Of a stretch of DNA of 64,000 nucleotides, positions 55,001 to 63,234 are shown in pieces. Every line of letters begins with the position of its first letter. Position 1 is the stretch's first letter. A program made the translations under genes and the position numbers. The notes under the pieces were generated by a model, which saw nothing but the letters and a program-made list of their open reading frames with translations, was not told the DNA's origin and ran no database searches. Source of the DNA: Euglena gracilis (Eukaryota); NCBI GenBank assembly GCA_039621445.1, contig CP154954.1, forward strand, positions 42,716,632-42,780,631, read 5' to 3'.

Positions 55001-58000
55001 CCAGAGAATGATCTTTAGACCGGGAGGGGTGCCCACCTACCCAGGGGGTAAAAAAGGGTCCAGGGAACCCACTTCTTTAGGGTCAATTTCGGGACGACAA
55101 TTGTTTTGTGTGATTTGCGATGGAAATAGAGGAAAACTCCCCGTGGGAGGCACTCACTCACATACATCTCTTTAAAGACCCCGGGGGGGTTGCTGGGCTA
55201 GGGCGAGAAATTTGGTGGCTAGAAATTTGGGCTGGCTAGCCTGCCCCCCCTCGGTGGGGGGGGAGGGGGGGGGGACTGCTGGACCCCGGCTGGACCCGAA
55301 CCGGGGCGAGCTGGACTGAAATCGGAAAAATGCCCAAAAATGACCTGCAAAACACAGTTTTGAAAAAATGATGCATCTGAAACCCCCCAAAAATGCCCCA
55401 AACGCCCCCCCCCAAACCCCATTTTTGGCCACTTTTGAACACAGTTTTTCAAAAAATTTCGGCGCAAAGTGCCGAAAAATTTTGGGCTGGCAAGCTAGGG
55501 CTAGCAGCACCCCCCCCCCCCCCGGGGCGGAGGGGGCTGCTGCGGCTGGGCTGGGCCCAAATCGGGGCTGGCTGCAGCCGCCCTCCCCCCCCCCCCGGGG
55601 GGGCTCGCAAAACCTTAAAGAGATGTATGCTCACTCACCCACCCCGGGGGAGGGGGTCGGGCGAGTTTTTAAAAAGGCCTATTAATCACTGTCCAGTTGA
55701 GCAGTTGAGGACAAGCATGTGGGGGAGAACATCCAGAGGGGGGTATCGCCCTCCAAGGCTCCACCAGACGGGGGGGGGGGGGCGGCATACGGGGGACGGG
55801 ACGGAAAGCTAAGGCCCACCACCACGGTGTGCTTGGCCGGGGCGGGCAGGGCACTGGGGGCGATGGCCGGCCCGGCCCCCGGGACGGGGGCCGCCAGGGC
55901 CTCGCAGAAATTCTTGCTACCGGCCTTGAGCTTGGCCGCCACGTTCTGCAGCCCTGACAGCGAGGCCAATGGCGCACGGCCCCCTGTGCCCCCCGGGGGG
56001 GGGACAAGACGCACGCAGCCATCACGTCGCGCAGGACTCCCCGGTGTACTTGGGGATGCAGCCGGGGTGGGGGATGTTTTCGGAAGGCATGCGTGCAGAA
56101 TGGTGGGGAAGGAGACGTCCTCGCACCCCACTGGCAAACCCAGCACCTCAGACCCCCCAGGCAGAGTTCAGGGAAGCGGTGACCCTGACCTGATGGGCAC
56201 TGGACGGAGGACATGACGCCCGGCACACAGCAATCAGCCTGGAGGTTTTTTTAGGACCCGGTGGGAGAGGGACCCCCCCCCCTGTGGGGGTCCCTTTCCC
56301 ACCGGGCACCCATTTTTTAGGGGGGGGACAGTCTTGACTACCCCCCCTTGACAACTCCGGGTAGGTCAACAAAATGCAAAAAAAAAACTGTGACTCAAGC
56401 ACACACCAACCAGCCCAGTGATGGCACCGCCAGCCACCGTGGGGTAGAGGTTGTACTGTTCCTTGAATCCCGTGTTGAAGAGCAGGCACTGCAGAAAAAC
56501 GGGACCACTACGACAATTCAACCGTAGAATTTGCGCATCTCTGTAAAACGGTGACATGCTGCGAGGAACACTCTGATCGTCACCCGGAGCCCCAGAATCA
56601 AAACGAGGAGAAAAAGTGCAAAATCACAAAAATTACCCCCAAAAAATGCAAAAAAAATTGGTACCAAATTTACAAGCACCATACTATACTATATGGAATT
56701 ATGAGGAAAATGTCAGTTTCAAAAAAAATTCAAAAATGCAGAAATAATCCAAAAAAAAAACGTGAAAAAATTGGGTAAATATATTTAAAAACAATGTGCC
56801 AAAGAGGAAAAACCCTGAAAAAAATCGAAAAAATGCACAAAATGAGGAAAAAGGTGAAAAAAAATGCGACATGCATTCCCCCCCTTCATCAGGGTCAATT
56901 TACATCATAAAAATATATGTCATAGACCAGATCTCAGAGGTTGCCCATGTTCAGCAGTGGCACACAAATGTGGGAGAGAAACTGATTGAGCGACATATTC
57001 CCTTTTACTGACAACCCTTCATTTGCAATAGAGAACTGCTGCGCAACTAAGAGTGGGGGGCACACTGGAGCAAGAGAAATCATGGTGTAATCGGTGGACT
57101 CTGGAGCCTCGCCGGTCAGGGTTTGAGGCACCCGCAGCAGGTACGCTCCTCCGTCGTTTGCCAGGCGCTGTGCGACAGGGAACCAGGGGCGGAGCATGGT
57201 TATTATTGCAAAATAAATTTATTTTCATTAGATTCATCAAGTTTGTTTTAAACCATATCCATGCAACTCATAAAAATACTAAGAATCTAACTCACACTTA
57301 CACACACATTTTTTTTTGGGGGGCTATAGCCGGCTTGTGGGGTCGCGCTTGCTCTCTCCGTCTCGCTTTGTGGAGTCCAGGGCGGGCGGGCTACCCTTTG
57401 TGTGTGCTGCTTTTGCCGGCTCCACTCCCCTCCTTCGCCTTTTTGGCGGATGCCTTTGGCCTGGCGTGTAGGCGGCTTTTTTTTTTTTGGCGACCGGGGT
57501 CTTTTTTTTTTTGGTCTGGGTTTTTTTTTTGTGGTGGCCGCCTTTTGGTGGGGGGTGGGGGTGTTTCCCTGGTGAACCTCCGCGCTTCGGGTTGCTTTGG
57601 TCTTGGCTTTGCCTTGGGTGTTGTCTGCGGTGGAGGCTGGGACTTACCATGGTTGGAGGGCATCCTCCACGCGGTCCTTGGCTGCCAGCTGTCGCGCCAC
57701 GTGGCGCATGAGTGTCACCGATAGGCCCTCCCGCATCTCTTGCAGGGCCCGCGTCTTTGGCCATCCTCGCAGGTCTGCGGTAGCCCTTTTGGTGACCTCA
57801 AACAGCACAGCCTTGGCAGAGGTCCCCATGCCCCCCCATGTGCTCAGGCCGAAGGGTGAGAAGCCCCACCCCTTCGCCTGACATGGAGGGCCATCTGTCT
57901 GCACTTTCCGGGTTTCCACCTGGTTGCAATGCCGTCGGGCATTTTCCACCACCAGTGGGTGCTCTCCGAGCCCCGCTGGGTGGCTGCAGACAAAGTCAAC

Positions 58001-63234: not shown

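Follow-up and report, generated by a model that had tools for sequence, protein, structure and literature searches.

The window analyzed here, a stretch of 64,000 nt of Euglena gracilis DNA (contig CP154954.1, positions 42,716,632 to 42,780,631 of the forward strand), holds on its minus strand an inserted unit of 4,124 nt (61432-57309; all coordinates are those of the window). The unit is a copy of a retrotransposon without long terminal repeats (non-LTR element) of the R2 group, which bears a restriction-like endonuclease (RLE), and it begins with the complete spliced leader (SL) of E. gracilis. An earlier description made from the sequence alone (the original prediction) had placed a full-length, SL-capped RLE retrotransposon at 57300-61441; we correct the element span to 57309-61432. 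The features of the unit and its flanks are as follows, ordered from the 5' to the 3' side of the element.

61433-61754, no strand: 5' flank, about 322 bp of (TG)n/(CA)n microsatellite with interruptions, target DNA upstream of the insert (repeat scan)
61407-61432, minus: complete 26-nt E. gracilis SL, the first 26 nt of the inserted unit (sequence match)
61240-61406, minus: 5' untranslated region (UTR) of 167 nt, with a 6-codon upstream open reading frame (uORF) at 61393-61373 (sequence, contig depth)
58633-61239, minus: open reading frame (ORF) part 1, 868 codons to the first stop (ORF list, alignment to relatives)
60820-60897, minus: N-terminal C2H2 zinc finger, CPFPLC...HLAARH (motif)
60709-60762, minus: Cys4 motif after the C2H2 finger (motif)
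59152-59760, minus: reverse transcriptase (RT) domain, Pfam RVT_1, E 2e-11, residues 494-696 (Pfam)
59509-59532, minus: RT motif VDVRNAFN (motif)
59347-59370, minus: RT motif HQGDACGP (motif)
59260-59274, minus: RT motif YLDDG (motif)
58970-58990, minus: frameshift private to the window copy (contigs, alignment to relatives)
57644-58957, minus: ORF part 2, 437 codons plus the stop at 57644-57646, with thumb/linker, CCHC finger and restriction-like endonuclease
58163-58216, minus: CCHC zinc knuckle, CPLC-x9-H-x3-C (motif)
58127-58141, minus: RHN motif, after the CCHC knuckle (motif)
57899-58054, minus: PD-(D/E)XK nuclease core (alignment, fold match)
58031-58054, 57989-58006 and 57899-57916, minus: nuclease motifs RRPADILL, VAVDFV and ETRKVQ
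57318-57643, minus: 3' UTR with internal A10, A11 and A12 runs (sequence)
57309-57317, minus: A9 tail, a 3' boundary common to other copies (sequence and contigs)
57291-57308, no strand: 3' flank, a decayed remainder of the (TG)n tract seen on the 5' side, TGTGTGTGTAAGTGTGAG (sequence)

The leader and the limits of the insert

On the minus strand positions 61432-61407 read ACTTTCTGAGTGTCTATTTTTTTTCG, which is identical in 26 of 26 letters to the published E. gracilis SL. The same 26 nt are printed in the available text of PMC6242988, and the SL primer given in that of PMC5654406 has two additional letters at its 5' side. The match is unique in the window on both strands with up to three mismatches allowed, and a 19-nt sub-pattern of the SL likewise matches the window at this locus only. 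None of 100 dinucleotide shuffles contained any SL match. Directly 3' of the leader, with no intervening bases, follows TTCTCGCATAAACATG, and a GT donor is absent at this joint. The original prediction had described just this arrangement, the SL exon as the first 26 nt of the element, joined to the 5' UTR with no GT donor behind it, and the sequence agrees on each point.

The other end of the unit had been predicted as A9, which sits at 57317-57309. Downstream of it TGTGTGTG TAAGTGTGAG is found at 57308-57291. As (TG)n lies on either side of the unit that runs from the SL to the A9 tail, the SL is part of the insert; insertion of the unit as a whole, together with its SL, into the (TG)n tract is the simplest reading. 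A target-site duplication is unreadable within such a dinucleotide repeat.

According to the available text of PMC2784804, Euglena SL RNA genes lie mostly in 0.6-kb SL-5S tandem units, while some are dispersed. An Rfam scan of the window returned no family at gathering score, where it should be noted that a model of the Euglena SL RNA may be absent from Rfam. With a laxer threshold (E<=1), scanning 56800-62200 gave only two weak matches to miRNA models, with E-values of 0.11 and 0.77. Neither scan found a 5S rRNA gene or a known ribozyme near the element. The 3' flank was also considered as an SL intron; this was rejected on context only, given the (TG)n on both sides and the lack of a 5S gene. 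The window contains no N letters. Blastn detected neither another copy of the element in it nor a second occurrence of either element end, and tblastn with seven relatives likewise gave no further copy.

With (TG)n on both sides, no GT and no 5S gene detected, two further parts of the original prediction are supported: that no SL RNA gene remnant is apparent at either end, and that the SL is, for this insertion, the element's own 5' end. A complete DNA-encoded SL at the 5' end and a poly(A) 3' end, together outside an SL RNA gene, are features that the insert shares with SL-tagged retrocopies.

The element, its relatives and its copies

In the available text of PMC3636483 the R2 group is defined by a single ORF in which an RT is followed by a PD-(D/E)XK nuclease. 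The window element belongs to this RLE-bearing group of non-LTR retrotransposons: it has a non-LTR RT domain, a C-terminal CCHC knuckle with a PD-(D/E)XK nuclease, a single ORF in its relatives and the signs of target-primed reverse transcription (TPRT) described below. In the C-terminal region C248, C251, H261, C265, R273 and H274 are invariant in all ten aligned sequences, as are R303, P304, D306, D321, E348 and K351 of the nuclease core. Used as a profile, this region matches a solved R2 protein over residues 985-1133 (domain i-E 0.049, whole-sequence E 5.8e-6). Its AlphaFold (AF2) model has a pLDDT of 88.9 and a pTM of 0.88, and a Foldseek search of PDB with this model gives R2 proteins for all of the best seven matches (E 1.7e-7 to 1.1e-3, TMq 0.57-0.63), with LINE-1 ORF2p at rank 17 (E 0.71). 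Similarly, a profile of ten full-length relatives finds R2 best in PDB (E 1.5e-18, against 0.0098 for LINE-1 ORF2p). The RLE retrotransposon of the original prediction is thereby confirmed by Pfam RVT_1, by the CCHC and PD-(D/E)XK motifs and by profile and fold matches to R2.

As to the untranslated parts, the 5' leader folds no better than shuffled sequences (z 0.17), and the first AG after the U-tract of the SL occupies leader positions 50-51. The fold of the 3' UTR is modestly stable (z -2.34; one of 100 shuffles folds as well), and the element's protein may bind here.

The element's sequence words are present in 20 of the 24 listed public sequencing runs, 15 of which hold at least half of them; the 20 runs come from 18 studies. 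In X20, a metatranscriptome, the share of words is 0.05, which carries no weight as evidence. Four runs (X1, X5, X4 and X15) were compared, with 217, 2,765, 142 and 12 contigs at 90% identity or more. The summed contig depth used here is not a copy number, and the mapping masks 61424-61475 as repeat, which covers the (TG)n-SL joint and SL nucleotides 1-8. In X5 the summed depth climbs from 5' to 3', from about 5,100-6,650 over 61065-61475 to 177,031 at 57295-57439, and this gradient is the shape given by 5'-truncated non-LTR copies. Contigs part from the window exactly at 57309 into unlike sequences (X5: n=8, agreement 0.51; X4: n=2, agreement 0.65). Therefore the 3' boundary is a feature of the family, whose copies lie at different places. 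The A9 tail, the depth gradient from 3' to 5', the common boundary at 57309 and the lack of LTRs are all signs of TPRT: the family is high-copy, dispersed and 5'-truncated, and behaves as a target-primed element.

The original prediction had allowed for all copies lying in SL RNA genes, a notion that is contradicted by the variation of 3' flanks among copies, mostly truncated ones. None of the 3' flanks listed for other copies is (CA)n, repeats being masked in the contig mapping. One X5 contig joins 60722 to 57309, that is, a 5'-truncated copy abutting the A-tail of another copy. Among the 21 loose contig ends listed, of 299 (202 variant rows lie outside the listing), two in X1, at 61137 and 61342, belong to contigs that match on the leader side only and continue with more than 230 nt of unrelated sequence. 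Other sequences, perhaps subfamilies, deletion derivatives or different elements, thus seem to have this leader in common.

The copy in the window is dead. Relatives of 1,111-1,259 aa have one ORF each, and one of them (P0003) aligns by tblastn to 61161-59011 and, after a change of frame, to 58990-57647; ORF part 1 matches relatives only to about 59011 and is out of frame beyond the frameshift. The two ORF frames differ by 2 modulo 3, and one added base yields a single ORF of about 1,198 codons. This extra base, put in as a G behind 58970, is present in contigs of all four runs mapped, at depths of 90.8/186.4 in X1, 6,644.5/18,080.3 in X5, 13.4/13.4 in X4 and 4.91/4.91 in X15. The ORF is thus split by a 1-nt deletion near 58970. 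Since no in-frame stops occur apart from the frameshift, the copy is young but dead. The term full-length in the original prediction holds for the domains, which are complete; the split of the ORF near 58970-58990 went unmentioned there.

With a profile hidden Markov model of the family, 46,804 representatives of protein clusters match at E<=0.001, and 6,037 do so at E<=1e-30. Of 10 clusters checked for names, two have informative ones, the 'SLACS 132 kDa protein' of Diplonema and an 'unnamed protein product' of Closterium, and a third has the label 'hypothetical protein' only. Relatives that bear names are from Diplonema, Closterium, Fragilaria and Ephydatia. No trypanosomatid CRE, NeSL, R4 or Hero reference was returned by word-indexed protein and Atlas searches, and kinship with the CRE clade is one of label only, through the automatic 'SLACS' names of the Diplonema relatives. 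In 11 of 208 relatives (P0015, P0021, P0024, P0028, P0030, P0031, P0032, P0082, P0100, P0191 and P0192) 2A-like motifs of the form D[VI]ExNPGP occur N-terminal to the RT, at most four in any one protein; they are absent from the window copy.

Best structural relatives are the R2 elements (Bombyx, Taeniopygia, Platysternon), which share the N-terminal finger, the RT and the CCHC plus RLE. R2 frees its 5' end by a self-cleaving ribozyme, whereas the window element matches no ribozyme family in Rfam and has the SL as its 5' end. The L1Tc/ingi elements, which are of the apurinic/apyrimidinic endonuclease (APE) type and not of the RLE type, are alike in being euglenozoan non-LTR retrotransposons in a trans-splicing host. 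They differ in that the internal promoter Pr77 drives abundant unspliced transcripts (PMC1874656, PMC8190864, in the text available). R2, according to the available text of PMC3636483, differs further in being specific for 28S rDNA, with which it is co-transcribed. The same text describes the CRE elements (SLACS, CZAR, CRE1, CRE2), which are also euglenozoan, single-ORF and equipped with an RT and a C-terminal PD-(D/E)XK nuclease, and have a link to the SL. However, CRE elements insert into SL RNA genes and the SL pieces adjoining them are target DNA, whereas the window element has the whole SL inside the insert, a (TG)n site without detectable 5S gene or SL intron, and varied flanks elsewhere. 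Insertion into SL genes, a feature of the NeSL clade, is likewise not seen for the window copy. EhRLE3, HERO and YURECi are R2-group elements without a specific target site, as the varied flanks suggest here, and the available text of PMC3636483 mentions no 5' SL for them.

Another likeness is found in dinoflagellates, where a DNA-encoded 5' SL marks the reverse-transcribed trans-spliced mRNA of SL-tagged retrogenes ('mRNA recycling'; PMC3942190, PMC6050394, in the text available). Those cases are host genes copied in trans, often with tandem relic SLs, whereas in the window the tagged RNA is the retrotransposon's own and a single, complete SL is present.

Origin of the leader

The joint between SL and UTR can also be followed outside the window assembly. 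In all four runs the depth of the 5' UTR equals that of the adjoining ORF start. An X1 contig of 632 nt (depth 41.3) spans 60782-61414, through the UTR and 8 nt into the SL, and differs from the window at 15 positions and by one gap. An X4 contig has 48 letters beyond 61376 and by that count probably extends to the edge of the mask (61424), which would take it about 18 nt into the SL; the X5 and X15 contigs listed end earlier. No divergence at the joint is seen among the 21 loose ends listed (of 299). The 3' part of the SL therefore precedes the UTR in other copies or strains as well.

A second genomic unit with the SL, unrelated to the element, is found in an environmental contig. Among prokaryote genome records a 21-nt SL pattern had one match, in a 988-bp contig (L001) filed in the record of a bacterial metagenome-assembled genome. 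Here all 26 nt of the SL stand at positions 791-816. Next comes ATCTTCTCAGG, without a GT, and then a short ORF, while (TTC)n and GGGGTA-like repeats lie upstream. L001 shares only the SL with the window element or its relatives and has no match in Rfam; it resembles a further genomic retrocopy with an SL cap, of euglenid origin and placed in a bacterial bin. As it carries a complete SL without GT, DNA-encoded SLs outside SL RNA genes are not confined to the window locus, and neither is the retrocopying of SL-capped RNA. Further searches gave no matches for the SL-UTR pattern in metagenome contigs or for the SL pattern in viral contigs; of 135 pattern matches to protein P0010 in metagenome contigs and 29 to alignment A1 in viral contigs none was confirmed.

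With moderate confidence we propose that the SL came with a trans-spliced mRNA of the element, which was copied by target-primed reverse transcription. The dead copy in the window, which belongs to an abundant R2-group element, would have been inserted in this way into the (TG)n microsatellite. The template would be the mature element mRNA, its 5' end replaced by the 26-nt SL through trans-splicing, and an RT running to the first nucleotide would leave a DNA copy that begins with the SL. The leader would then be a footprint of the RNA intermediate and not a piece of an SL RNA gene. In full-length RNA data the SL exon is found on 7,028 of 9,669 E. gracilis genes, and outrons use a canonical AG (PMC10679874, in the text available). 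Given that trans-splicing is usual in this host, the SL would be added to an element mRNA whose acceptor immediately precedes TTCTCG; source copies presumably have a pyrimidine tract and an AG just before TTCTCGCATAAAC. The putative retrocopy of L001 also counts in favor of this explanation.

Several observations weigh against it. At the SL/UTR joint of the window copy the acceptor position holds CG, not AG, so that a copy of this type cannot remake the same RNA by canonical trans-splicing. SL-capped daughters would lack the acceptor, and a large family needs many competent sources or another route of transcription, the AG-bearing source copies themselves being inferred. The contigs of the other runs show only the 3'-most 8 to about 18 nt of the SL. 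Run X15 is labelled RNA by guess only, and its longest contig of 35,760 nt suggests DNA content. Tandem relic SLs, which the original prediction had proposed to look for, do not occur: no second or partial SL is present in the window at up to three mismatches.

Daughters without an acceptor would be accounted for, without any trans-splicing, by a promoter-driven source: a master copy that occupies exactly the junction of exon and intron in an SL RNA gene and uses the SL RNA promoter, with window-type copies as ectopic, dead-on-arrival insertions of that RNA. We consider such an origin rather unlikely. The known CRE elements sit inside the SL exon and not at its 3' boundary, and an insertion exactly at the exon boundary by a non-specific element would be a rare event. 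The window copy also lies outside any detected SL RNA gene. The 3' flanks of other copies (mostly truncated ones) vary, without a constant intron-like flank that dominates, which argues against a site-specific family. Still, SL sequences are the insertion site of most CRE and NeSL elements described (available text of PMC3636483), the Diplonema relatives carry automatic 'SLACS' labels, and the dispersed SL RNA genes of Euglena (available text of PMC2784804) could host a master copy. This alternative had been put forward in the original prediction; it is weakened by the varied flanks and we retain it as a rival.

The SL might also have been added at integration, by an R2-like RT that jumped from an uncapped element RNA onto an SL-containing RNA. 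End-to-end template jumping is a property of the R2 enzyme, and the element is R2-like by profile and fold. Nonetheless, a jump onto SL RNA would copy the intron too, whereas only the exact 26-nt exon without extra bases is found; the sole template ending at the last base of the exon is the short-lived free SL exon. In addition, the joint recurs in other-run contigs with 15 differences, which a sporadic jump would not yield, and we regard this route as very improbable. Even less credit is given to the idea that the joint is an assembly or cDNA chimera. The masking of 61424-61475 leaves the (TG)n-SL joint uncovered by the contig comparison, but the window is free of N, has a private frameshift and genomic microsatellite flanks, and the passage from UTR into SL is seen in contigs of runs from other studies and organism codes.

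Returning to the copying of a trans-spliced mRNA, it might tentatively be argued that the whole family depends on it: an autonomous R2-group family without a promoter of its own, carried in host read-through RNA, with a life cycle dependent on SL trans-splicing. Trans-splicing would then excise and cap the 5' end, the role of the self-cleaving ribozyme in R2, and each full-length daughter would record a DNA-encoded SL. The U8 tract of the integrated SL could act as a pyrimidine tract for the AG 24 nt downstream (leader 50-51), and daughters might be re-spliced at these positions, which would remove the uORF. Such re-splicing predicts copies whose SL is joined, step by step, at positions further downstream.

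A non-LTR retrotransposon that brings no upstream promoter still needs a 5' end that is defined and can be translated. Of the answers known, one is an internal promoter, as in L1 and Pr77, and another is a ribozyme that cleaves host co-transcripts, as in R2. An autonomous element with genomic copies starting with the SL would point to a third answer, host trans-splicing, and would tie the association of RLE elements with SL genes in euglenozoans to the SL-tagged retrocopies of dinoflagellates, which have so far been separate facts. As a built-in 5' tag the SL would mark the retrotransposition template as a mature mRNA copied to its first nucleotide. It would also separate source copies (AG acceptor) from daughters (SL) in a whole genome, which makes the master-copy question testable. 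SL-tagged retrocopies and SL-targeting RLE elements are already known; in the literature available, which leaves subscription journals mostly outside, we found no account of an autonomous element starting with the SL, or of a retrotransposon with SL-starting genomic copies in Euglena or elsewhere, which is no proof of its being unpublished.

Surroundings of the insertion

The window region looks repeat-rich and gene-poor. None of 20 further long ORFs has a Pfam family above cut-off. About 5% of the window is taken up by seven long (CA/GT)n arrays, among them 5543-5723, 7594-7925, 14484-15693, 33215-33994, 40110-40552 and, next to the element, 61433-61754. At this proportion an insertion landing in (CA/GT)n by chance is mildly unexpected. 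Arrays of (TAC)n, (AAC)n and (ATAC)n are present in the window as well.

Further out on the 3' side of the insert lies an AT-rich flank (57150-57294), for which the summed contig depth is 217.5 in X5, 1.37 in X1 and 0 in both X4 and X15. As this flank is not seen in all runs that hold the element, the insertion locus is perhaps likewise absent from some strains or species holding the element.

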